A DNA stretch of 64,000 bases from Asterias amurensis (taxonomy: Eukaryota), in NCBI RefSeq assembly GCF_032118995.1, contig NC_092652.1, positions 15,688,336-15,752,335 of the forward strand, read 5' to 3'. Positions 19,861-44,007 of this stretch are shown here, piece after piece. The notes under the pieces are model-generated. The model did not search any database. It was not told where the DNA came from and was given only the letters and a program-made list of their open reading frames with translations. A program made the translations under genes and the position numbers. Each line of letters begins with the position of its first letter. Within the stretch, counting starts at the first letter, position 1.

Positions 19861-20794
19861 TGTCCTACACAAATTACCCAGACCCTCTAACATTGGAACA
19901 CATATTTGGGTGGTTTTAGGTAGACCTATTAAGACCTAAGCTAAAGTAGTAGTCCAGTCTAATTTCTAGACCATCCGCCCTGGTAATAGTTATAAAAGCA
20001 GGACAGTTCTTTTCAGAACTGAGAAGTCTCCCGAACCTCCGATTATCTACTCCTCGGCAGTAGAATAAGCAAGACAGTTCCCTAAGAACAACTCTACCTG
20101 GCAAGTAGATACACACATGGTGTTACCGCAAACCAAATATACATTGATACCCCACCATGCAATGCCTCAAATCCTATAGGTAGACCTACTCAACAAAAGT
20201 TAAAGCCATTGAAAAAACTGCTTACATGACAAATGCAAAGTGTCCCTCTATTTTTCTTTGAACTGTTTTGCAACACCAACTGTTTAAACCCATTAGATTG
20301 AAGTTATGAAATGTTGTCATCCTGAACGATCTTATAACCTGAAGTTAATCCGGTAAAATAAACTAATCACTTATCTTTTTATGCAATGTATAAATTACCA
20401 AACACTTAACACTTTGTATTGTGTAAGCACTTTTCTGGTAATATGGAAGTAAACAATGGATTTAATTGAATTAAATAACGTTGATTCTGTTTAATCTAAT
20501 CATTATTTTTTTACAGTATTATCAACTCGCTGATAAATAAACTCTTAAGATACATCTAAAAAAAAACTAACTTATGAAGATTTAATCAAATTTTCATTCA
20601 TGGCCTTGCTTCACCCAGGTTTTTTTTTGCTCTAAGCGGTTATAAGCAAGCAAAAAGGGTTCTTCAAGCCCCAATTTTCTTCTAAGCACAGTGTTTAAGC
20701 ACAGCGCAAAGTGCAACATCATTGCAATACGCTGTTAGTGTGCAGCTAAAAAATAACTCTACAAACGTAGCCATTCAGTCTTGATTTTTGGGGT

Positions 20795-21545: not shown

Positions 21546-22997
21546 AAGGAATTCCACTTTGTGACAGAAATTAAGACTTTCTTCACAGTTACAGAACTTG
21601 ACAGCCTCATAATTCTCCAGACATGTTCCTGTAGGACTATGACCGCAGTAAATCACCCCACTGAATGAAAGATGTTATCTAGTTTGCTCCGTAATCAATG
21701 AGATTTCCCAAGTGCCGCTTTGTTACAGTTACATGCAAAACAGCCATTGTCTGATCAATGCAATCTACATGTTTACAGATGACACAAAATTTATCAATCC
21801 TTTTGACAAACAGATAATACTTTGACCTCAGAGCACACAGAGTGACGATTATTGCACTTTGATCTGACAGTCCGAATTCCAAATTGTGAAACTGTCAGAT
21901 ATCTTTAAAAAATACATTTTGTGTACTATGTACCAGGCTGGTAAATGTATCTTCATTAGACCATGTATCTTTAAGTCGCCATCTTGTAGGGCAAACCGTA
22001 TGCGCGTCTAAACGTGTACATCAAAGAAACACGCAGCATGCAGCATTCCTGGTTTGATTTCAATGGCACAAGCACGCACACACAAACGCACACACACATG
22101 CACACGCTCACTGACGCCATTTTGTAGGGCAGATATTTGAACGGTGATGTCATATTCAATACAGTCTATTGAATAAATTAGCGTGGTTCAAAAATTAAAC
22201 ATTCCCACAATTGTTACAAACTGTGCACTAGGAGGAGGGGGTTGAAATCAGACGTAACCTTTTTCAGTTTTACAATCTAAAAACCCTGTAAAAAGACAAT
22301 TTACTAATAATAAATTCAACCCATAAATCATGCACCCTTGGTCTCAATATCTGTGCAGATTTAATGATCAGCCTTATGACAAAAGCCTTATGACAAATTG
22401 GAATGTCGGGGCGACATCATCGCCACAAACTAACTTTTACCACATCCATTTTTAAACAATAATTGCATTGTCATAAAGTCAAACTTATTTGAGTCAATTC
22501 TTAAACTCTCAATTAATTTTTGTGCAAGTCAAGGCAAGCCTCAAGTTAAATTCCCTCAAGTCAAGTCAAGACACATGTCATTTTTTTACCGACCAACGTC
22601 AATGCAAGTTACAAGTTATTTTTCCCCAAGTCAAGTCAAGTCGCAAGACAATGAAATTGGCGGCTCGAGTCCAAGTCAGAGACGCGAGTCAACAACACTT
22701 GTTCTGCTGGCTTGTCATTAACAAACTTAAGGGCAAACCCTGCAAGGGCAAAACAAATCTGAAATCAAAGTAAAGTGGAAAGCATAAAGCACGGTTCAAA
22801 CTTCCTGCGAATGCGCGATAAGAATGTTGAGGTCACAAATTCGCAACGAATAATTCGCAGAATTTGAGTTGTGCTCAACTCTCTTGCGAATGTAGCAGCG
22901 AAAAACCTAGTTGTGATGTCAAATTCACGTAAAATTTGCATCACATTCGCATTCGCAGGAAGTATGAACCGGGCTTTATACTTGCTTAAAGCCTCAC

Positions 22998-23085
22998 CTG
23001 TGGATCTACTTTCATGTCGGTATTAATTCCCTCTATTGATTCTATCCATGCTTTAAAGTGCGGCAATTCACCAGCAATGTTGTAC
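22998..23085 (-). CDS. AGPS: AGPS exon 4 (RYNIAGELPHFKAWIESIEGINTDMKVDPQ)
   Basis: matches human [26 protein letters not shown]; acceptor tttcag, donor CAG|gtgagg. Confidence 0.85.
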
Positions 23086-23953
23086 CTGAAACGAATAAAG
23101 AGTGCATACATGTACTCTTTTATGTCTGTCAAAACAACAATTTCAGAGCTCTTGCAGGAAAATAAGAGTGGACAGCATTACAAACAGTTGTTCCCTTATC
23201 TGATATACGTCTGTAGATGCAAACACAAATTTTTAAATAAATAATGAAACTAGTTCCAAACACATGGAAAAAAGGTCCATCAATTTTCATTGTTCAACTT
23301 ACATGTGGTCCCTGTAGGGAAATTTTTCAGAAAAAGGAATAATCATGATAATATTTGGAACAGTGGCAAGTCCGCACAACTGTTTGTGCAAAAGACTGAA
23401 CGGCTGACGTACAAACTAATGCATGGTGAAATACATCGCTTGATGAAAAATTTTAACTTAAATAATTTCAATCTGCAAATTAATGACACACTGGACTGTC
23501 TTCCATTATGTTGCTTTTAAGGCCCTTGTTCATTATGACATTATGCATGGCTAAATTAACCCTCCAGTTGAATGTTGAATCATTATTGTATTAGTAGAGT
23601 TGATTCCAGATAGATGAGAAGTCTCCCAACGATGACTAGAGCAAGCTAGTCGAAACATTGAGACCAATTCAAGAACTGACTCCGCAGCAGTGCAGTAAAT
23701 TACAATCCTATGGCTTAAGTACATAGTATTCCCAGCCAATTCTCTATACCTTCCGCCCGGGTAGCAGTTAAAACGCCGGACAGTTCTTTTCAGAACTGAG
23801 AAGTCTCCCGAACATCCGGTAAATCTACTACGCGATAGTAGAATAAAGAAAGACAGCTCTCTAAGAACAAACTCTACCAGGCGAGTAGATACACACATGG
23901 TGTTCCGACAAACCAAGTATAAATAGATGAGACAAGCTACATTTAATAAATAC

Positions 23954-27399: not shown

Positions 27400-28529
27400 A
27401 TTTTCCCAAGTCAGACAAAGATCTTGATCGGGAAAGTCGGTAATAAAATAAAACTACAGGCAGCCCTGGACTCTCGCTCTCTCCGATGTGCAAACTACAT
27501 TCACAACGTCAACAACGACAACGTGTGTTATGTGAATGGCCTTGTTTTAATAAACTTGCTTAAGTCGCACAAGGGCAAACTACCACACTTACCAATCTAA
27601 TTTTCTTCATTGCATAAATTTAGAAAAATTAAAACGTACTCTTTTTATGATTTAAAAAAAATGAATAAAAGCTTTCTAATATCAAAAATACACCAGTTAA
27701 AAATTATACACAAAATATTTTATGTAATGCTTTATTAAAAGGACTAGTGTAGCTCTAGGTAAATTTCGCATCACGCCATACACGATTCTTTTTGTCAAAG
27801 AAGTAGTGACATGACCAGGGGCGCCCCCTAGACAGGTGGTGAAGTTGGGGCGGGGGTTGAAGGGGGGGGGCTCTAAAATATTGATGTAAGAATATGTGAA
27901 TAAAATCAACAACAACGACAATCTTCGAGTAATACCATTGTTGACGCTGGCAGAATTACCAGCGGGGCATAAACCGTCCGGAACAACAAGGATGAAAAAT
28001 TAATTATTTTTGTCTCAATGCGACTGAACCGGTCGCAAAATGAAAACTCTGGCTGCTCAGCTTGCGACAGTTCGCAGTGAAATTGGGGGGGGGGGGCACG
28101 GAATCGCCGGGGGGGGGGGGCACATAATCATGTTCAATGTGCGCACGAGGGCGCTCTGAGTTTACGAAATGTGAAATGGTTATCAAGATGATCTGAATTT
28201 CTGAATGTCATGCAGGCAGATATTTCCCTCAAAACCAGCAACTAACCTCAGTCTCTGGTAAACGCTCATTCGAGCAAATCAAATAACTGCTTATGTTTCG
28301 TGAAATCCTTTATTAATCTGTTTGAGTGTTCAGGAACTTTTAGTCAAGAATAATATAAATGAGTCAACTGAAAGAATGTAGAGGCTATTTCCCTACACAC
28401 AATAATCATCACACTTAATTAAAACATAACACAGTCAGCATGTAAAAAATAAGAAGAATGATCCAATAGCCTGTAGAGTAAACAATGTGGTTGTGTGCCC
28501 CCCCCCCCGGGGGGGGGGGTGTCTACCCG

Positions 28530-30286: not shown

Positions 30287-30783
30287 CAGACTTGCTATTT
30301 TAATTATATCGGTCATAAAATGTGAATAAATCTTTAAATATAACCATGCAATGTTGTCAACAAAGCCGAAGCCCGTCTCGAACCCCACCCCCAGAGAGAG
30401 GCACCGCAAACAAAATAATACAACAGATTTTACGAACCTAAAACATAATATAGCATTTTTTTTAAAGCGCACTTTATCTGATCTGCACATGCCACGAAAA
30501 CGCCATCGACTCAGCGCTGGGAAGATTTTTTGTTGTGGCCGAAAGCCAGAAATGAGGCAATTAAATTCAGTAGTTTTCCCTGAAACCACGAACAAAGTTA
30601 CTCGGGAAGGTCGGAGTTTGTTTGTTTGTTGTTTGTTCGTTCGCCACTCCCGAGGGCTACCCCTTCCGGAATAAGGGTGCCATATGTAAGCGCAAAACCA
30701 AAACACGCAACCTCAAATCCCATACATCAATCAAATTGATACAAAGGTGTAATTGAGTTTTTTTTTTCAGATGAGCCAGTACC

Positions 30784-32180: not shown

Positions 32181-32458
32181 TCATTCCATTTTACCAAACA
32201 GTACTAACTTCGCCCCCATTAACTCCCAATCCAACTCAAATCCTAGTATCGCCTGTATCTCCATTTGGGACACTTTGATGAACTCTTTTGCCTTCATCAC
32301 TGAGTCGGAGAGCTTTTTCTGATCAGTATCCCCTGGATTCGTTGGGTGGACAAGCAAACGAGTAACTATATGACTTTTCGCCATGATTGTCGCCAAGAGC
32401 TGGAAAATCTTATCAATGACGCCCTCGACGTCCAAAACAACTCCATGCGATAGCAACT
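32181..32458 (-). CDS. Unknown proline-rich protein gene, putative terminal exon (ELLSHGVVLDVEGVIDKIFQLLATIMAKSHIVTRLLVHPTNPGDTDQKKLSD...LVLFGKME, stop at 32183-32181)
   Basis: acceptor tgttttag; frame verified against ORF 32181..32507; an alternative donor TTTG|gtaaaa 12 nt before the stop cannot be excluded; no clear AATAAA downstream. Confidence 0.55.
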
Positions 32459-32989
32459 CTAAAACATTAAAACACACAGAATGATTTGGTGAAAGGATCA
32501 TCTTCATAAATATCCTATTTTTATGCAGGTTTGCCGAAATCTAGCAGGAAAAATACCTGCATTCATGTTTATTCATGGACTAATTTCATAAGAATCGATT
32601 TGGCAGCAGGTGATTCCGTAACAATTTCCCTTTCAAAATTAGCATGTTGTGATATGGTATTTCTAGTCTGCCTAATTTTTGTTGTGTTAGCAAAATGGAT
32701 GCTTGGGTGTTTGTTTTTATATAATAAAATAAAAGTTTACAAAGTTTACACGTTTTATAATTTGATGGTATGATTGTTCTACACAATAGTGCACACAGTC
32801 GTACATCATTGCGTATCCGAAGACCTGCTTGATTCCTTTCCATTGCTCTCTTTGAAACAAATCTCTGAAAGTGCCCAATTTATGGCATTAGGACTACCTA
32901 TGTTTAGGTCATAATTTTTATAGATAAAAGGGGAGCCTTAATTGTTTTATGGAACACATTGATTAAACACCATGTTTAAAAATTCTCAC

Positions 32990-33083
32990 CTGATTCTAGT
33001 TTTTCTTTGATGAGTCTGCGTGAGTCAATGTGTTGAACGACGAGAATCTCTTCAAAACCAGGAAAGAATACCCAAGAACCGTT
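32990..33083 (-). CDS. Unknown proline-rich protein gene, exon 3 (NGSWVFFPGFEEILVVQHIDSRRLIKEKLES-)
   Basis: acceptor tgtcacag, donor CAG|gtgaga; phase-consistent with exons 2 and 4. Confidence 0.65.
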
Positions 33084-33342
33084 CTGTGACAATCAAAGAG
33101 TAAAGAAAATTCTCGATCAAACTTAACTACTTTATTTTATAACATTATTGAATTTTGATCTTTACTACATGCATACCCCCCCCCTCTCACCAACGGCCCA
33201 TAGCAATTGTTGTGCTCGTCTCGTCTAAAAAAAGAATTGGGCTAGATTCTTTACAATGAACACTAATTACTACTCAATGAAATTGCTGCATTAAAAAAAT
33301 AAAAAATAAGGAGTGTACAGGCAGAATTCCATAGTAACATAC

Positions 33343-34331
33343 CTGTCCTTGCATGCTAAGGAGGCGTTCTGTGTTGGTCGACATCCCTCTTGGTTGATCT
33401 ATAGATAGAGCACACATCGCCATATCATCCATCCCCATACCATCCATCCCCATGTCAGCCATCCCAATTTCTGCCGCCATTTTGAGACTCTCCCATGGCG
33501 CCCTGGATCGCTCCTCCTCTGATTGTAATCTATCCCAACTTACCCCTGTCAGGGGGACTGCGGGCAGGGATCGAGGTAGGGATCCAAGAGATCGAGGTGG
33601 GGGTGAAGCGGGTACGTACTGAGCGGGTGCCCCTGGGAGGGGTGGGTGTGGGGGTGGAGCGGGTACATACTGAGCGGGTGCCCCTGGGAGTGGTGGATGT
33701 GGGGGTGGAGGGGGTGGAGCGGGTGCAGATTGAGCGGGTGGGTAAGATTCTCCTGGAAGGGGGTGTGGATGTGGGAGTGGAGCGGAAACAGACTGAGCGG
33801 GTGGGTATGTAAGTTCTCCTGGGAGGGGTGGATGTGGGGGTAGAAAGGGTTCAGACAGAGCGCGTGGGTAATGGTGTTCTCTTCTTGGGAGGGGAGGACG
33901 TGTGATACCTTCGGTGAGTAGGGCAATGGGCTCGTCATCTAGTGTACATGTATCGCGATGCATTGCAAGGCCAGTTGGCCTTATCATCTCTATTTCCGTC
34001 TCGTCTAAAGTATCTTCCAAGGACAACTCTTCTTCACGAAGCTCAAGTGATTTGCGACGAATACTTTTCTTAAGCCGGAGTGCTAATTTCGTAAAAACAT
34101 TCTTAGGCTTACGTTTTGGGGTTTCAACAGCTGGTTCGTAATGCACTTCTTTCTTTCGCACCACCACGGATGGCAAAAGGTCCAATTCTTTTGGTTCCGG
34201 CCTCCATTCTTCTTGTAGTACTACAGGGAAGTCTTCCATCATGACTAATTGATCGAATTCGGGTGAAGCTGGAATTTCTATTTCTATAGCTTGCCGTCTC
34301 TCTGGGAGAACTTCAATGGTTAACATCGACT
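33343..34331 (-). CDS. Unknown proline-rich protein gene, exon 2 (989 nt; ESMLTIEVLPERR...HPPLPGAPAQYVPAPPP repeats...ERLLSMQGQ)
   Basis: 330-codon open frame (ORF 33274..34326) in AT-rich DNA; acceptor ctgtacag; donor CAG|gtatgt inside the ORF at 33343; internal ~60-bp coding tandem repeats at 33540-33900. Confidence 0.7.
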
Positions 34332-34430
34332 CTGTACAGATTTAAAAAGAAAACAATTGACTGTAACAGTTGTGAATTCAGTTAACTGCGAACCCCATTA
34401 TTCTACTATCCATACAGAAATATATCCTCA

Positions 34431-34432
<2 letters not shown>

Positions 34433-34493
<61 letters not shown>
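34433..34493. repeat. (CAG)n microsatellite with CAA interruptions, ~80 bp upstream of... just 5' (genomic, higher coordinate) of exon 2 of the unknown gene
   Basis: cagcagcag... run; lies in the intron between exons 1 and 2. Confidence 0.95.
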
Positions 34494-34692
34494 AGAGACA
34501 AAGTACTGCATGCCCATTGTGAATTATCGAAAACAATTTGATAAAGTGCAATTTGGAAACGCACTGATTGAAAATTTAACCTTTCTTCAAGGGAAATATT
34601 CGGGTCTGAGAAAATAGCACTGTTGAGACAACTCTCCTCCAACCCATCATACGTTGTTTATTTCTATATCACAAATGCAAGCAATCGAAACA

Positions 34693-35074
34693 AGCATATT
34701 TAAAGACATTTGACACTATTGGTAATTGTCAAAGACCAGTCTTCTCACTTGGTGTATTTCATAATATGCATTAAATAACAGACCTGTGAAAATAATCTCG
34801 TACCTGTGCGAGATAATAATGCAAGAAAAAACACACTTGTCACACGAAGTTGTGTGCTTTTGTATGGCTGATTTCGAGACCTCAAGTTCTAAACTTGAGG
34901 TCTAGAAATCAAATTCGTGGAAAAATACTTCTTTCTCGAAAACTACGTCACTTCAGAGGGAGCCGTTTCTCACAATGTTTTATACCGTCAACCTCTCCCC
35001 ATTACTCGTTACCAAGTAAGGTTTTATGCTAATAAACTTTTTGAGTAATTACCAATAGTGTCCACTGCCTTTAA
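34693..35074 (+). mobile_element. MITE family A copy (full length), about 140 bp 3' of exon 1 of the unknown gene
   Basis: TIRs gacactattggtaattgtc / accaatagtgtccactgcc. Confidence 0.9.
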
Positions 35075-35211
35075 GGGGCATGGAAAAACATCAGTATTGT
35101 TGAACCACCGTTCAAGCTACATTTGTCCACAATCTGGCAATGTGTGCCCCTTTTTTTAATTAAACGCTTGACCCTCAAATGAAAAGAATTGAGAACAAAT
35201 TTTTTATTTAC

Positions 35212-35305
35212 CGTCATCATCTTCCTGTGATATTTGGGGAGAAAATGGTATGGATGGAACGAGTCGTCTTGCTTTACTCATTGGTTGGTCCTGCTGTCTT
35301 TCCAT
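35212..35305 (-). CDS. Unknown proline-rich protein gene, exon 1 (MERQQDQPMSKARRLVPSIPFSPQISQEDDD-)
   Basis: ATG with purine at -3 and G at +4; donor G|gtaaat; phase joins exon 2. Confidence 0.55.
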
Positions 35306-35499
35306 TTCAATCTTACACCTTCATTGCAACCAAAACCAGCAATATTGTGAGGCTATAAATATGGCGCAATTATTATTAAGGACATTTTACTTGGGGGAGG
35401 GGACAATATATTGTATGTTTGGGTGTGCTGTTTGAGTGAACACTATTTTGTAATAACTCATAAATGCTAGCATAAAAACTTACATGGTATCAAGCAATG

Positions 35500-36650
35500 G
35501 AGAGTAGTACGAAACATTGTAGTATGAAACATTGTGCACTGCAAAAACGTTGGTCAAATTATTTGTTGGGCAAAGTAACTTCAACAATTATTGGTCAATA
35601 ATTGCCCAACAAAACCAATAATTGGTGTTGTTGGGCAAACATTTTGTTTGCCAATTTTTTGTTTAAAAAGCGGAACAAAAGTTGGGCAAGTGTTGGGCAA
35701 ATAATTCGTAATCTGAATTTATCATAACTGTTGGTTACACTTTTGCTTATTTATTGGGCAACTTTTTGGGTAACTTTAATTAATTTTGATTGTTGGTTAA
35801 AATGATGCACATCAGTTGGTCGAAATCATCCGATCATGCGCACTACGATCAAAGAGTTGCCCAAAAGTTGGGTATGGTATAAAAAACATAGCGATATTTT
35901 CCAACATGGCGAGTGGAGGAGTGGCTGTGACGAGCGGGGTTGTCCAGTAGATATAGATCAAATTTGAAGGTTAGTTTTTAACTAAATATGAAGTTGTGTT
36001 TTCTATTCAGTCGTACATAGTCGTGACAGTTGCAGAGCGAGCAACACAGCGACACTACTGTTGAATTAGTTTCAGTTTTTAGTTTCAGTTTCATCATGCC
36101 ATTATGTGCAATGCCGGTTGTGGCATGTATGCGTGTGCTTGCGCTGCAACTGTCACGACTGTGTACAACAACTGAACAGGAAACAAACTGTATTTAGTTA
36201 AAAACTAACCTTCCAAAGCATCTACAAACCACTGAGCACCCTCTCGATTTTGAGAGAGATGTCGAGGTCACAGCTCACTACCGTTTGCCATCGTGGAAAA
36301 GATATTTTCTATGCCTGGTTGTATGACGTATCACAGGAGAAACTGTAAATCAAAGGGTTAAATATGTTCACCATTTGTTGGATAACACCGAAAAGGGTTA
36401 AATCATCGCCCAATAAGTGGATTATTGATAATGTATTAAATACCCAGAAAATGGGTAAACAAAATATTACCCAACTGTTGGTTAGCAAAATATACCCAAC
36501 TATTGATGAGGAAATATACCCAATTATTTGGCAATCAGAGTGCCCAACTTTGATGGGTAATATTTTGCCCAAAAGTTGGAGGAGTTCACTATTCGCCCTT
36601 AATTGGGTAAAAGGTTGGGCATTTTTTTACCCAATTTTTTTACAGTGTGA
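35500..36650. repeat. Large (~1.1 kb) inverted-repeat/foldback structure with a central ~260-bp palindrome (35960-36220)
   Basis: the left arm is rich in ttgggcaa and the right arm in ttgcccaac/ttacccaa motifs; nested perfect inverted repeats tcgtgacagttgcagagcgagcaa / ttgcgctgcaactgtcacga and ggttagtttttaactaaata / tatttagttaaaaactaacc. Confidence 0.7.
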
Positions 36651-38763: not shown

Positions 38764-38899
38764 CCTTCCGATAACGTCGTCTCCAGAACCTCTGCCGGTA
38801 AATGTTTCTTCACCTCCTCAGAGGCATCATTGACAAGATCAAATGCCTGCCTCATATCAGGTTCAACACGAGCACAGAACTTTGAAAAGCGATGAGCAA
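38764..38899 (-). CDS. PARP4: PARP4 C-terminal exon (VAHRFSKFCARVEPDMRQAFDLVNDASEEVKKHLPAEVLETTLSE-)
   Basis: acceptor gtttttttag, donor G|gtaaat; phase-continuous with the 40061 exon; weak similarity to human SICPRLELGNDWDSATKQLLG. Confidence 0.55.
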
Positions 38900-39272
38900 C
38901 CTAAAAAAACAAAAACACGTGTAAAACTATTTCCAGATCATCTCATCTTTAGACAGGTGCGTTCACACACGTTTGTCAACCCAGTAAAAAGAGACCTTGT
39001 CTTTTTTCTCCCATTAGTTGCAGTGTTTATTTCATTTTTTACATACTTATTTGGTTGTCATCCGTCGTCATTTTCGAACAAATTCCTTTGGAAAATTTAT
39101 TTCTTTTCTAAAACTTCGCCAACCTTATAAAGCCTCGCCTTACAACTTTGTTACGGTTTGGTTGAAACATTTACGTTAGCACAGCACAACAGGTCCATGC
39201 ACATAAAGCCAGCAAACTGCAGTCAGCCAGGGTTGTCAAAACCCATACAAATTAAACCCATTTTGGGATGTT

Positions 39273-40210: not shown

Positions 40211-41701
40211 CTGCAATCAAACGTGATTCAATAATTGCAGTTTTATTATAAACATTAACTGACATAATTCACGAGAAATTCTGAAAAACATTCAGGATTC
40301 ATTGAACAAGTCTTTCAAGATGCTATCTATAATCTTGACTGGATAAATCATCACCCAAGTCATTTTCGTTGTTAGATTCATTTATCTTGGCAAAGTAATT
40401 TACACCTGTGGAGCTCTGTAATGTATGTTTTCTTTTGTAGTATGCCATTTTTGTGATGTGGTTGTGTCTTTAATGATATCAGCTTGGAATAAGATACAAA
40501 AGCAAAGTTAGGCTTATTGGCCAGGTCACACAGACCCCAATAACGAAAACGAGAACGATAAAATGCACGCTCTCGATTGGTTGAATTGCTCCACGCAAAA
40601 TACGCCGCCACGCTTATATTCAACCATTCGAAGGCATGCATTTTTAACGTTCTCGTTTTCGTTCTCGTTCTCGTTATCGAGGCCTGTGTGACCGGGCCTT
40701 TAGTCAGAGTATGTCATGAGAACGATATTTGGCTAAAGGGCCATTGCAGATTTTTGTCCTTTGATGAAACGGGTATAAACCACAAGGGAAAGAGACTGGG
40801 TAACTATTTAAATGATTTCAGCTTGAACACAAAATAGAGCGGGATTTGAACGAGCGACCTCCGGTTTAAAGTCACCTGGAAATATTTATACGTGTAAAAA
40901 ATATATAAAGTTGTTCGGGGGCTGACTCCGCCTACCCCTTTTGTGACGTCAATCGAGGCAGACTTTGCCTGCAATGCGTATAGTAAACACACGTGCAAAG
41001 TACATACGTCCAAGTCGTGAGTTGGTATATTTCAAAAAGTGTTTTTCTGCATTCAGAAAACGTACAAACTCACGACATGGTCCTTACATGTAATTTGCAA
41101 CTGTGTTTACTCGACGCATTACAGGCAAAGTTTGCCTCGATTGACGCCACGAACAGCGCCCTCTCGGGTCGGGGTCTACTCTTAAATTTGTAAATAACAT
41201 AAGAACTGAAACCTTAGTTAACTGTTTATTTACATTCCACTCATCAAAACAAATATGTTGGTGACAAAAGCTATATTTTGAAAAAATACCACTTCTATGT
41301 GACTTTAAAGTGCCAGTGCTCTGTACCAACTGAGCTGTATATAGATCAAGTTCTTTGTTAGAGTCTTCCTATTTTGCCAAAATATGAGTGGAGTATCGAA
41401 TCCATTTGATTATTAGCAAGTAAAAGTGGGTACCAACCATATCTTTATAGCCGCAGTATTTAACCAGACACCAGAAAAATATCAATTTCCAAAACTAGCG
41501 TCAAGAATTCTTTTGAGATTAAAACTTGTTGACAGTAATTTTATTTATTTCTTATCAACGAAGGGGACTCCAGACCAAATAATTTTGCAGGATGCTTACT
41601 ATACTATCACTACAATCTTCATAAAAAGTAAGCGTTCAGATGAAAATAAAACACTTAAACACTTGTTAAAGGTTTTTACCACAAATTATGACCCCTTCCT
41701 T

Positions 41702-42094: not shown

Positions 42095-44007
42095 ACTACC
42101 TCAATATTTTGGCATATAAATCCCGGTGCATACTTAATGCTACTCTCACACTAGGGAGAAAATGCTAGCGAATGTGCTTACGAACGTAAATATAATCGCG
42201 CAAACTTCGCAATATTCGCCACAAATTTACTACGTTCACAAGTCATTCTCCACCCCCTTACGAAGATCTGTCACTTTATGCAGCTCTCACACGGCGAATA
42301 TGCTAGCGAATATGCTAGCGAATATGCTAGCGAATATGCTATCGGAAGGACATTATTTGACAATCGCTCAAACTTCGCAGCATTCGCCGTGTCTTCGTTA
42401 TGAGCGCTGGTAACAAATTCGGAACGTTCACAAATAATTCCCCACCTCCTTACGAAGATCGCTCAATTTACAAACCGGTTTGTTAATTTCAGCGAATGTT
42501 GCGAAGACGGTCATTCGGCGTGATTTTCGTAAGCATTGGTAACCCTGGTAATAGCGTGCGTAAGCGTTTGCAACGTTCGTAAAGGCATTGGCAAGCGTTG
42601 GTAAGCATTCGTAATATATTCGTAAGATATTGGTAAGGAGAGGGCCGACCGAGGACGATCGAGAGGTGAGACCGAGATGAAAATATTCACTATCCAACCG
42701 CCATTTTGGACGAATTCTACGCGCAGTTCAGATAATGTTCGCAAGAACATTCGCCACTCTGTGAGAGCAGCAACTTTGCTCAACTCACTTGCGAATATCG
42801 CTGCGAAAGGAGGGTTATGACATCAAATTTACGTCAAATTCGCTTCGCATTCGCATTCGCAGGAAGCCGGGCTTTACTGCGAATGCGATACTAATTTTGA
42901 CATCAAAAATTCACAACGAATAAATCGAAAACATGGCGGTGACCCAGAACCGCCCGGTGAATAGTTGCCATTGCCGCCTACAAACTCACCTCCGGGTGTT
43001 TGGCTACACTGGGCTCCTCCCAGTTTAGGGTTGGCAGCTGATCAACATCTTCTGATGAGAGAAGATCTTCCACGGTTTGAAGCAATTCTAGCTTTTGGCC
43101 TTCTGCAAGATGCCTCTGCTCTTCCTTGATATAAATGCAATCAGGATGGATGGTTAAAGACACTGGACACTATTAGTAGTTGTCAAAGACCCAGTCTTCC
43201 CACTTGGTGTATCTGAACATATGCATACAAAAAAAACCTGTGAAATTTGAAGACTCAATTGCTCGTCGAAGTTGCGAGATAACAGTGGAAGAAAAAACAA
43301 CCCGTTTCACACGAAGTTGTGCGCTTTCAGATGCTTGAATTCAGGACCTCAAAATCTAATTCTGAGGTCTCAAAATCAAATTCGTGGAACATTTTGAAAA
43401 ACATGAATCACAAGGAACGCAAAAAAAAAAAAACATACCGCAAAGGGGGCGGGGTGACTTCTTTAGAGGTAAATATAGTGTGCTGAAAATTTGGAACATT
43501 GGGGGGGGGGGGGGTAAACTGCGATGGTCAGATTAAGGGGAACAAAATCCAATGCTGAGTGTTCAAATTAATCACTCTATATTTCGATTGCAGCAATCAA
43601 AATAAGAAACTCGATTTCTGGCGTCTTATTTTTTTTGTCTTCAGGGCCCAATTTCATAAAGTCTGTAAGCACAAAAATTGCTTAGCATGAAATTTCTTCC
43701 TTGATAAAAACAAAATTACCAACCAAGTTTTAATGGGTTCCATATTGCTCCGCTGTTGTTTGCTTATCCTGGAAATTTAGTTGGTAATCCTGTTTTTATA
43801 AAGGGACAAATTTCATGCTTAGCAAATATTTGTGCTTACAGGCTTTATGAAATTGGGCCCTGGTCAGACGGCATTTGAAGATTTTGGTGCTGGTATTATT
43901 ATCTGTACAGTGAGATTTAGACTGTTCCCCCCCCCCCCCCCCCCCCATCATTGTATATCTACCCTGGACTTTGTATTTCATGTTACAACACCATCATATC
44001 TCCTTAC

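Follow-up and report, generated by a model that had tools for sequence, protein, structure and literature searches.

A proline-rich reading frame downstream of PARP4 exons in Asterias amurensis probably encodes the linker and a strongly diverged MINT/MVP-ID domain of the same gene

PARP4, the vault PARP, ends in an acidic or Pro-rich disordered linker and, behind it, a helical domain that forms the C terminus (PMC10450202; PMC12280208). In the human protein, this MVP-ID/MINT domain (Pfam PF26156) spans residues ~1562 to 1724, adopts a compact eight-helix fold (PDB 9bw6/9bw7), and docks the enzyme on repeats 3 to 5 of MVP, the major vault protein, inside the vault shell. The MINT residues K1618, Q1682, and R1689 contact MVP (PMC12280208). 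The linker of primate PARP4 evolves rapidly, with positively selected residues at ~1504 to 1521 (PMC10450202). Acidic or Pro-rich tails also follow the motif EDVD..W in PARP4 fragments of frog and oyster.

We analyzed a window of 64,000 nucleotides from Asterias amurensis, in which a preliminary description had placed an unassigned four-exon gene at positions 32181 to 35305. The minus-strand join 35305-35212 + 34331-33343 + 33083-32990 + 32458-32181 amounts to 1,455 nt and forms an unbroken open reading frame (ORF) of 484 amino acids, with GT...AG at all internal boundaries, in agreement with the preliminary description. Exons 2 to 4, their phases, and the variable repeat stand; the ATG-bearing exon 1 is the weak point of that model. 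The features of the region are as follows.

33343-34331, minus strand: exon 2, a large linker exon of 989 nt with an open frame and AG/GT sites
33901-34331, minus strand: acidic part of exon 2
33544-33900, minus strand: Pro/His-rich repeats of exon 2
33415-33462, minus strand: Met-rich repeat of exon 2
33343-33372, minus strand: predicted helix TERLLSMQGQ at the end of exon 2, leading into the MVP-ID-like domain
32990-33083, minus strand: exon 3, 94 nt (NGSW...KLES), opening the MVP-ID/MINT-like domain, with a phase-0 acceptor and a phase-1 donor
32181-32458, minus strand: exon 4, terminal, carrying the remainder of the MVP-ID-like helical domain and a TGA stop at 32183-32181
35212-35305, minus strand: exon 1 of the preliminary model (ATG...GACG/gt), of uncertain status

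The codon-usage LOD of all four exons ranges from 0.10 to 0.24, inside the range of PARP4 exons in the same window, with exon 4 at 0.145. The exon 2 acceptor (TGTACAG/AG) is kept in contig L003 of the ENA SOLA (Banyuls) marine metagenome. An alternative donor at 32193, suggested earlier as a route for splicing to continue, is not needed, as the MINT domains of Lottia and Trichoplax likewise end a few residues past the equivalent L(L/I)G.

Directly upstream, from 57735 to 42990, lie colinear PARP4 exons (six-frame reading, homolog search, tblastn colinearity) with 37 to 47% identity to homologs and E values down to 1e-157.

57735-52800, minus strand: PARP regulatory and catalytic exons with the H-Y-E residues
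51915-50206, minus strand: VIT exons
49016-48241, minus strand: VWA exons
46951-43981, minus strand: post-VWA exons
42990-43124, minus strand: last homology-supported PARP4 exon (...EDVDQLPTLNWEEPSVAKHPE/gtgagt), ending in phase 0 with no stop
38765-38900, minus strand: candidate for an extra exon of the linker, 136 nt long, phase 0 to 1 (ab initio prediction only)

According to tblastn, the PARP regulatory, catalytic (H-Y-E), VIT, and VWA parts are colinear, as in one gene, and LLLHGSR, GIYFAD, and DDEFVVY are present. The best matches of a concatenated PARP4 query of 612 aa, which cover 100% of it, are PARP4 proteins of molluscs, fish, and cnidarians. The motif in the exon at 42990-43124 fits EDVD.L..(I/L)SW, as it occurs in PARP4 of molluscs and fish. 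Exons of AGPS are found farther downstream on the same strand, at ~24 to 11 kb.

On the same strand, 7.7 kb separate the last homology-supported PARP4 exon from the four-exon model. This interval, between 42990 and 35.3 kb, holds ab initio exon candidates only, among them 40210-40061 and 38900-38765. The ORFs at 40216, 38900, and 38239 showed no similarity to PDB sequences or human PARP4, and the actin-like linker segment of the oyster and L007 PARP4 is absent from this window. Two routes lead in frame from 42990 to 34331, one via 38900-38765, with strong sites, and one via 35311-35212. The candidate exon at 38900-38765 has an acceptor score of 0.84, a donor score of 6/8, and a codon LOD of 0.27 (top 1.5% of null stretches); it is present in all of the best exon chains and joins PARP4 at 42990 to exon 2 in frame. 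A better in-frame chain thus skips exon 1 of the preliminary model. We propose that the region is probably the C-terminal third of PARP4, composed of a linker and a strongly diverged MINT/MVP-ID domain, and no separate gene. Exons 2 to 4 most likely close the upstream PARP4 gene as its three final exons, to which they would be spliced.

It is improbable that the region is instead a stand-alone gene, for example one arisen by fission of PARP4 or driven by an internal promoter, with a transcript from ~35.3 kb encoding a 484-aa linker plus MINT-like protein. Exon 1 does carry an ATG, an in-frame TGA six codons upstream (35323-35321), and a usable donor, and its codon LOD of 0.15, a value reached by 6% of null stretches, is compatible with coding. 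The only phase-compatible acceptor that would make it an internal exon, an AG at 35313-35312 joining it to 42990 in phase 0, scores just 0.32 compared to 0.78 to 0.84 for the other acceptors, a weakness more in keeping with a first exon. Short database proteins named as MVP-ID domain-containing also exist, though they resemble annotation fragments. Against a separate transcript, promoter evidence was not found, the 400 bp upstream being AT-rich with repeated TTGCCCAAC motifs, and the upstream PARP4 would be left without a terminal exon, a stop, and a docking domain. The chains that link PARP4 to exon 2 in frame use stronger sites. Moreover, the domain of fish, Lottia, and Trichoplax either forms the PARP4 C terminus or comes immediately after the PARP4 gene model. 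The segment at 35212-35305 may open a separate transcript, may be internal to PARP4 with its start at 35311, or may be no exon.

As part of PARP4, exon 2 would encode a disordered linker that is acidic at first and continues with HPPLPG...PAQ..P..PPP units, variable in number, and with a short repeat of Met, Asp, and Gly. This linker would lie between the VIT-VWA (ITIH-like) body and the tail, as in all PARP4 proteins. The acidic character reported for the N-terminal region is evident from its composition, with 38 D/E versus 25 K/R in the first 175 aa (19 versus 8 in the first 80 aa). The Pro-rich segment covers aa 176 to 293, where 45 Pro and 7 His occur among 118 residues. About six copies of a repeat had been counted there, and we recognize five clear units of 17 to 24 aa (RPPLPRREHHYPRALSEPFLPP, HPPLPGELTYPPAQSVSAPLP, HPHPLPGESYPPAQSAPAPPPPPP, HPPLPGAPAQYVPAPPP, and HPPLPGAPAQYVPASPPP) and a degenerate sixth; the DNA unit, however, varies from 51 to 72 bp and is not a uniform 60 bp. 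TRF resolves the Pro-rich repeat DNA into a period of 51 with 2.3 copies (92% matches) and a period of 63 with 3.9 copies (70% matches). The Met-rich stretch was also described accurately and corresponds to a 15-bp tandem repeat with 3.4 copies.

SOLA contigs from Banyuls plankton are 93 to 97% identical to the window, and the contig used for comparing the repeats, P0002, shows 87 to 97% identity including the introns. It lacks two of the Pro units and carries one GMADM unit more, in support of the earlier expectation that the copy number is polymorphic. The number of Pro repeats thus appears to differ in a related haplotype or species, as judged from these two sequences. Exon 2 is 91% identical to P0002 (exon 4 is 97% identical to P0001), and all six indels that distinguish exon 2 from P0002 are multiples of three, with lengths of 84 nt and 39 nt among them; apart from the gain or loss of repeat units, four further in-frame indels set the linkers apart. 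Together with the PARP4-like codon usage, these six in-frame indels support the coding status of the region. The long ORF had also been considered as part of a repeat element, a reading that we rejected because it is unlike the SINE-like and other repeats of the window and is conserved in frame in the related contig.

The end of exon 2 together with exons 3 and 4 would encode a strongly diverged MVP-interaction domain (MINT/MVP-ID, PF26156) of ~125 aa. With both MAFFT and HMMER, the entire module can be aligned to MVP-ID domains from 35 vertebrate sequences at 18 to 25% identity, and the HMM alignment pairs profile positions 10 to 135 with query positions 5 to 126 in a colinear manner. The features in common are TE.LLS.Q...G.W, LLAT, K.A.E(F/W)(I/V), and L....DW....K/QL.(L/F)G, and the end of exon 2 (TERLLSMQGQNGSW) fits TELLSLQTEDGFW of human PARP4. 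MINT profiles were built in house from the 35 vertebrate sequences, with or without those of Lottia and Trichoplax. Exon 4 ranks first among 1,660 six-frame segments of the window with three versions of the profile (E values of 1.2, 0.4, and 0.29), and no other MINT-like segment was detected among these segments by profile search. The scores of ~7 bits (E of 0.3 to 0.4 against 1,660 segments) are below any standard threshold, while the real HMMER score was reached by 3 of 2,000, 4 of 1,000, and 5 of 1,000 shuffled sequences. With hhalign, the module matched MINT at P 0.03, and 14 of 300 shuffles scored as high. The same profile recognizes the MINT domain of Trichoplax with an E value of 1e-12, suggesting that the module is an unusually diverged copy.

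Searches of general databases with the module were largely empty. Scanning the whole protein and its C-terminal 148 aa at E ≤ 10 against a local copy of Pfam without PF26156 yielded nothing but a chance match to Thymopoietin (E of 0.055), and a PDB sequence search with the C terminus gave no meaningful match. Both word-indexed and exhaustive HMMER searches (phmmer, 1.8 billion representatives) with the C-terminal 183 aa retrieved only exon ORFs from the species' own SOLA sequences. The longest PARP4 in the searched databases is ~1,070 aa, and full-length PARP4 tails are therefore probably missing from them. BLASTP of the module against one fish MINT was not significant, AF2 on the single module sequence gave an unusable model (pLDDT of 43.6), and fold searches with the module did not recover MINT. 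Considering the upstream PARP4, the layout of linker and terminal module, the full-length alignment with MVP-ID/MINT, and the structure of the opening exon, an unassigned gene with an unrecognized C-terminal domain is not the best reading.

This exon structure is shared with distant animals. The exon that opens the domain has its phase-0 acceptor exactly at [DEN]G.W and a phase-1 donor; it measures 94 nt here and, as read from DNA, 88 nt in Lottia (27709-27796), 100 nt in Trichoplax (23441-23540), and 103 nt in a fish contig. The position of the second intron agrees within 0 to 10 residues, depending on the alignment, and the next exon runs to the stop in Lottia and Trichoplax, as in this window. 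In both of these genomes, the MINT exons lie 7 to 9 kb past a truncated PARP4 gene model that does not include them, indicating that PARP4 annotation is fragmented in other genomes too. No MINT domain was found within 10-kb flanks downstream of PARP4 from Candidula, Acropora, and one ENA invertebrate.

Several residues of the family are lost. The module has the entry motif NGSW with TE.LLS.Q ahead of it, and its end motif keeps L-6 and DW. It departs, however, from the MVP-ID pattern of (D/E)G(F/Y)W at the entry and YP...RLE(L/F)G..W near the end, with IQ in place of YP, a pair conserved in all family members examined. The position of Arg1689 is a gap or Ile, and those of K1618 and Q1682 are not conserved. 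Lottia MINT has Thr at the R1689 position and retains YP. We infer that the module would still fold like MINT. Binding of the module to MVP is doubtful, since its sequence does not retain the conserved YP, the conserved Arg1689, or the contact residue Lys1618.

That the module is no MINT homolog, and that the exons form an unrelated lineage-specific gene adjoining PARP4 with motifs matching by chance, is quite improbable. Such a reading would agree with the lack of significant database matches beyond the species' own sequences, the marginal profile scores, the missing YP and R1689, and the fold searches without MINT. Nonetheless, it requires that the first rank among 1,660 segments with three profiles coincide with a shuffle p of ~0.002 to 0.005 and that the full-length colinear alignment be due to chance. 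It would also leave to coincidence a phase-0 intron exactly at G.W with a phase-1 intron ~31 codons further on, an arrangement shared by three distant animals, and a terminal position on the right strand just after a PARP4 otherwise without a tail. A nonfunctional remnant, either a decaying PARP4 tail or a repeat-derived ORF no longer expressed as protein, is highly improbable: the unusual divergence, the lost contact residues, the absence of a canonical poly(A) signal (AATAAA) within 1.8 kb of the stop, the similar nucleotide identity to SOLA contigs of exon 4 (97.8%) and its flanking intron (96.5%), and the three synonymous versus three nonsynonymous differences in exon 4 would suit it, but this divergence is too small to measure selection, and the 484-codon frame is open over four exons with intact splice sites, in-frame indels, and codon usage like that of neighboring coding exons.

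Taken as a PARP4 tail, the locus most likely represents a known kind of gene and no new kind of system. Its value for annotation is that an apparent orphan proline-rich gene would be the missing tail of PARP4, which is also omitted from the Lottia and Trichoplax models. More tentatively, and with the odds rather against it, divergence of the PARP4 domain that docks to the vault may, in this marine invertebrate lineage, go far beyond the range seen from placozoans to mammals, with loss of the conserved YP and of the arginine that contacts MVP, behind a linker whose Pro-repeat number varies in the population. If so, the PARP4-MVP interface could have been rewired in coevolution with the host MVP, or PARP4 could have been released from the vault, and conflict-driven evolution of the kind proposed for the primate linker would be possible. 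Such a diverged example of the docking domain, together with its variable linker, might help to find the MINT residues needed outside vertebrates.

As with known PARP4 C termini, a same-strand gene of the BRCT/PARP/VIT/VWA type has the module at its 3′ end, where by genomic adjacency it is the final coding element ahead of the stop at 32181. A long Pro-rich linker, predicted to be disordered, comes first and the module, all-helical by prediction, follows; its ~125 aa end a few residues before the stop, as in Lottia and Trichoplax. It shares with MVP-ID the entry TE.LLS.Q..(D/N)G.W, the LLAT helix, the terminal L....DW...L.G, and the structure of the opening exon. It differs from MVP-ID in its low identity, nonsignificant profile scores, and loss of YP and Arg1689, and also lacks ~9 residues of the VLQLMRVEK helix while having ~10 extra residues after the second intron. 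VWA5A, set beside the module by description only, offers an earlier case of a MINT-like fold that lacks the arginine for vault docking. It is without a PARP catalytic domain, unlike the gene upstream, in which regulatory and catalytic PARP exons occur with H, Y, and E in place. Finally, as in primate PARP4, the segment between the ITIH-like body and MVP-ID is the most variable part, although the variation here consists of tandem-repeat copy number and indels and not of point substitutions with demonstrated positive selection.

Minus-strand sequence upstream of the four exons (35305-35212, 34331-33343, 33083-32990, and 32458-32181), read in six frames, contains unmistakable PARP4 exons:

Segments of the PARP4 stretch
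Within 57735-42990, minus strand: regulatory and catalytic PARP segments (LLLHGSR, GIYFAD, and DDEFVVY; H-Y-E present)
Same stretch, minus strand: VIT, MEAKYVFPLD...AFINDKHVVG
Same stretch, minus strand: VWA, from the six-frame reading
Same stretch, minus strand: post-VWA segments, IRDWEEG...FIAVEEREE and EDVDQLPTLNWEE

When the concatenated translations were used as a query, PARP4 proteins from molluscs, fish, cnidarians, and Trichoplax were matched (37 to 47% identity, E to 1e-157), and tblastn placed segments of these relatives colinearly from 57735 to 43981. The final recognizable PARP4 exon (43124-42990) ends with ...AKHPE before gtgagt, in phase 0 and without a stop. The N-terminal part of PARP4 may include two exon-like ORFs, 62472-62140 and 59143-58922, with the gene possibly starting from about 62470. 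Minus-strand ORFs at 24156-23554 and 11460-11008 (EVLKWNGWGYRDSKF and a second, 20-residue stretch) presumably encode AGPS (alkylglycerone-phosphate synthase); in that case AGPS, with a possible first exon near 27400 (MAARERTNVILGHLKPQ), would follow as the neighboring downstream gene in this orientation, its exons lying at about 24 to 11 kb. Flanked by PARP4 exons upstream and AGPS exons downstream on one strand, the four exons therefore lie where a PARP4 tail is expected. The preliminary description had called them an unassigned gene; the frame and exons 2 to 4 stand, but separation from a known gene is not the favored reading, given the colinear PARP4 upstream on the same strand. The exons are likely the 3′ part of PARP4, coding for a variable disordered linker and a highly diverged MVP-ID domain.

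GC content (39%) and GT-AG introns mark the window as eukaryotic. As proposed, the four exons join into 1,455 nt with canonical sites at all junctions and an uninterrupted 484-aa frame, and their codon usage resembles that of the adjoining confirmed coding exons. It is nonetheless conceivable, if unlikely, that a separate transcript encodes the linker and domain alone: an in-frame TGA lies six codons 5′ of the exon 1 ATG and, were exon 1 internal, its sole phase-compatible acceptor (start at 35311) scores 0.32, versus 0.78 to 0.84 for exons 2 to 4. Even so, an exon 1 starting at 35311 would still join the PARP4 exon end at 42990 in frame. A crude exon-chain search from 42990 to exon 2, using splice sites and codon usage, yielded a better in-frame path than that through exon 1, i.e., 42990 to (42544-42446) to 40210-40061 to 38900-38765 to 34331, of which candidate exon 38900-38765 is the strong element (acceptor, 0.84; codon LOD, 0.27). 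No homology support was found for these candidate intermediate exons, which are ab initio predictions only. At the other end, donor 32193 scores below the other donors and is not called for by the comparison with MINT, the MVP-interaction domain of PARP4. A scan of the 1.8 kb past the stop codon (32180-30300) found no AATAAA; the earliest ATTAAA is at 30304.

Several repeats were noted around the gene. Multiple copies of an interspersed, SINE-like element (core ...CACTATTGGTAATTAC..., pseudo-peptide RSRNQ..STQLR..VFF..IISQLRR) occur in PARP4-region introns at about 35090-34750, 43340-43170, 39617-39500, 55918-55775, 58457-58221, and 36805-36650, and a second repeated element (pseudo-peptide PTVLVRTVKGKPRNFE) at about 41900, 46260, and 1350. 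Upstream of exon 1, the AT-rich stretch 35560-35780, with TTGCCCAAC / GTTGGGCAA motifs repeated in both orientations, resembles a small inverted-repeat element more than a promoter. A PARP4 intron carries a long tandem repeat (56933-56587) with a peptide-like pattern in all three frames, and the intron immediately upstream of exon 2 holds a (CTG)21 microsatellite (34433-34495; CAG on the plus strand).

The human PARP4 C-terminus comprises a long disordered linker, a site of positive selection in primates, and then the helical MVP-interaction domain (MVPID/MINT, residues about 1562/1570-1724), which docks onto MVP repeats 3-5 through contacts including S1614, K1618, Q1682, and conserved R1689 (PMC10450202, PMC12280208). 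Its database name is PF26156 PARP4_MVP-ID. As references we used the human sequence from PDB 9bw6/9bw7 and 74 vertebrate examples. In genomic DNA, MINT exons were also found 7.4 to 8.2 kb downstream of the truncated PARP4 model of Lottia gigantea (KB201931.1; locus L004, 27709-28530) and about 8.7 kb downstream of that of Trichoplax adhaerens (DS985264.1; locus L008, 23441-23948). Both sets are left out of the annotated "partial" models; no gene is called over the Lottia exons, and the Trichoplax annotation places a separate 148-aa gene (22084-23135) between model and MINT exons.

The module encoded by the end of exon 2 and exons 3 and 4, earlier described as an unrecognized domain, aligned end to end with 35 vertebrate MINT domains in MAFFT (18 to 25% identity), and its HMMER alignment to a vertebrate-only profile was colinear over positions 10-135. 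Its entry motif TERLLSMQGQNGSW matches human TELLSLQTEDGFW; the module also keeps the LLAT helix and the terminal L....DW....L.G. Exon 4 ranks first among 1,660 six-frame window segments under each of three profile versions, and composition-preserving shuffles matched the real profile score in 3/2000, 4/1000, and 5/1000 cases. Gene structure, counted as evidence independent of sequence scores, agrees: in the window, as in Lottia, Trichoplax, and a fish contig, the domain-opening exon (94, 88, 100, and 103 nt, respectively) is preceded by a phase-0 intron placed exactly at the start of [DEN]G.W and followed, about 30 codons on, by a phase-1 intron, and the next exon, as in Lottia and Trichoplax, reaches its stop a few residues past the last motif. 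Counting against a MINT assignment are the lack of any significant standard score for the module against MINT or databases (Trichoplax MINT, by contrast, gives E 1e-12), the conserved MINT residues that it lacks (below), and the low or moderate confidence of its AlphaFold2 models. An unrelated gene adjoining PARP4 would fit the missing scores; set against the full-length alignment and shared opening-exon structure, it seems quite improbable. Homology to MINT is probable from weak sequence signals combined with position and gene structure, and "unrecognized" is only partly apt.

Ahead of the module, residues 1-175 of the frame form the acidic region first described. Proline makes up 38% of residues 176-293 (33900-33544); the repeat coordinates and approximate count of six were sound, with five clear units of 17 to 24 aa and a degenerate sixth, but the units measure 51 to 72 bp rather than a fixed 60 bp. 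The Met-rich stretch that had been noted consists of tandem 15-bp repeats. In the SOLA (Banyuls) marine metagenome, three short ENA contigs match the window at 87 to 97% identity, introns included, and so derive from this species or a sibling of it. Among these contigs, L003 retains the exon 2 acceptor, and its protein P0002 covers exon 2 with 91% identity over aligned columns and six indels, each a multiple of three; two remove Pro-repeat units (five copies in the window versus three in P0002) and one is an extra GMADM unit. These differences support the suspected variability in repeat number as well as a coding exon 2. A decaying remnant, which the module's divergence might suggest, seems very unlikely given this pattern and the intact frame.

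In two invertebrates, a segment close to the actin N-terminus (AGFAGDDAPRA...GRPRH.GVMVGMGQKDSYVGKE) lies downstream of the VWA in the linker region, within the Saccostrea cucullata PARP4-like protein itself (P0006) and in separate ORFs called downstream on ENA contig ctg1160 (17942-18358 / 20083-20385); its presence in two independent assemblies disfavors a simple chimeric misprediction. An actin-like exon was searched for in the window and is absent. The module conserves neither the YP common to all examined MINT family members nor the residues equivalent to R1689, K1618, and Q1682; Lottia has Thr in place of Arg1689. Whether the module might retain MVP binding is, judged from these residues, uncertain. 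The locus matters chiefly for annotation and for asking if vault docking persists without conserved contact residues; most likely, its exons represent a new, divergent member of the known PARP4 tail type.
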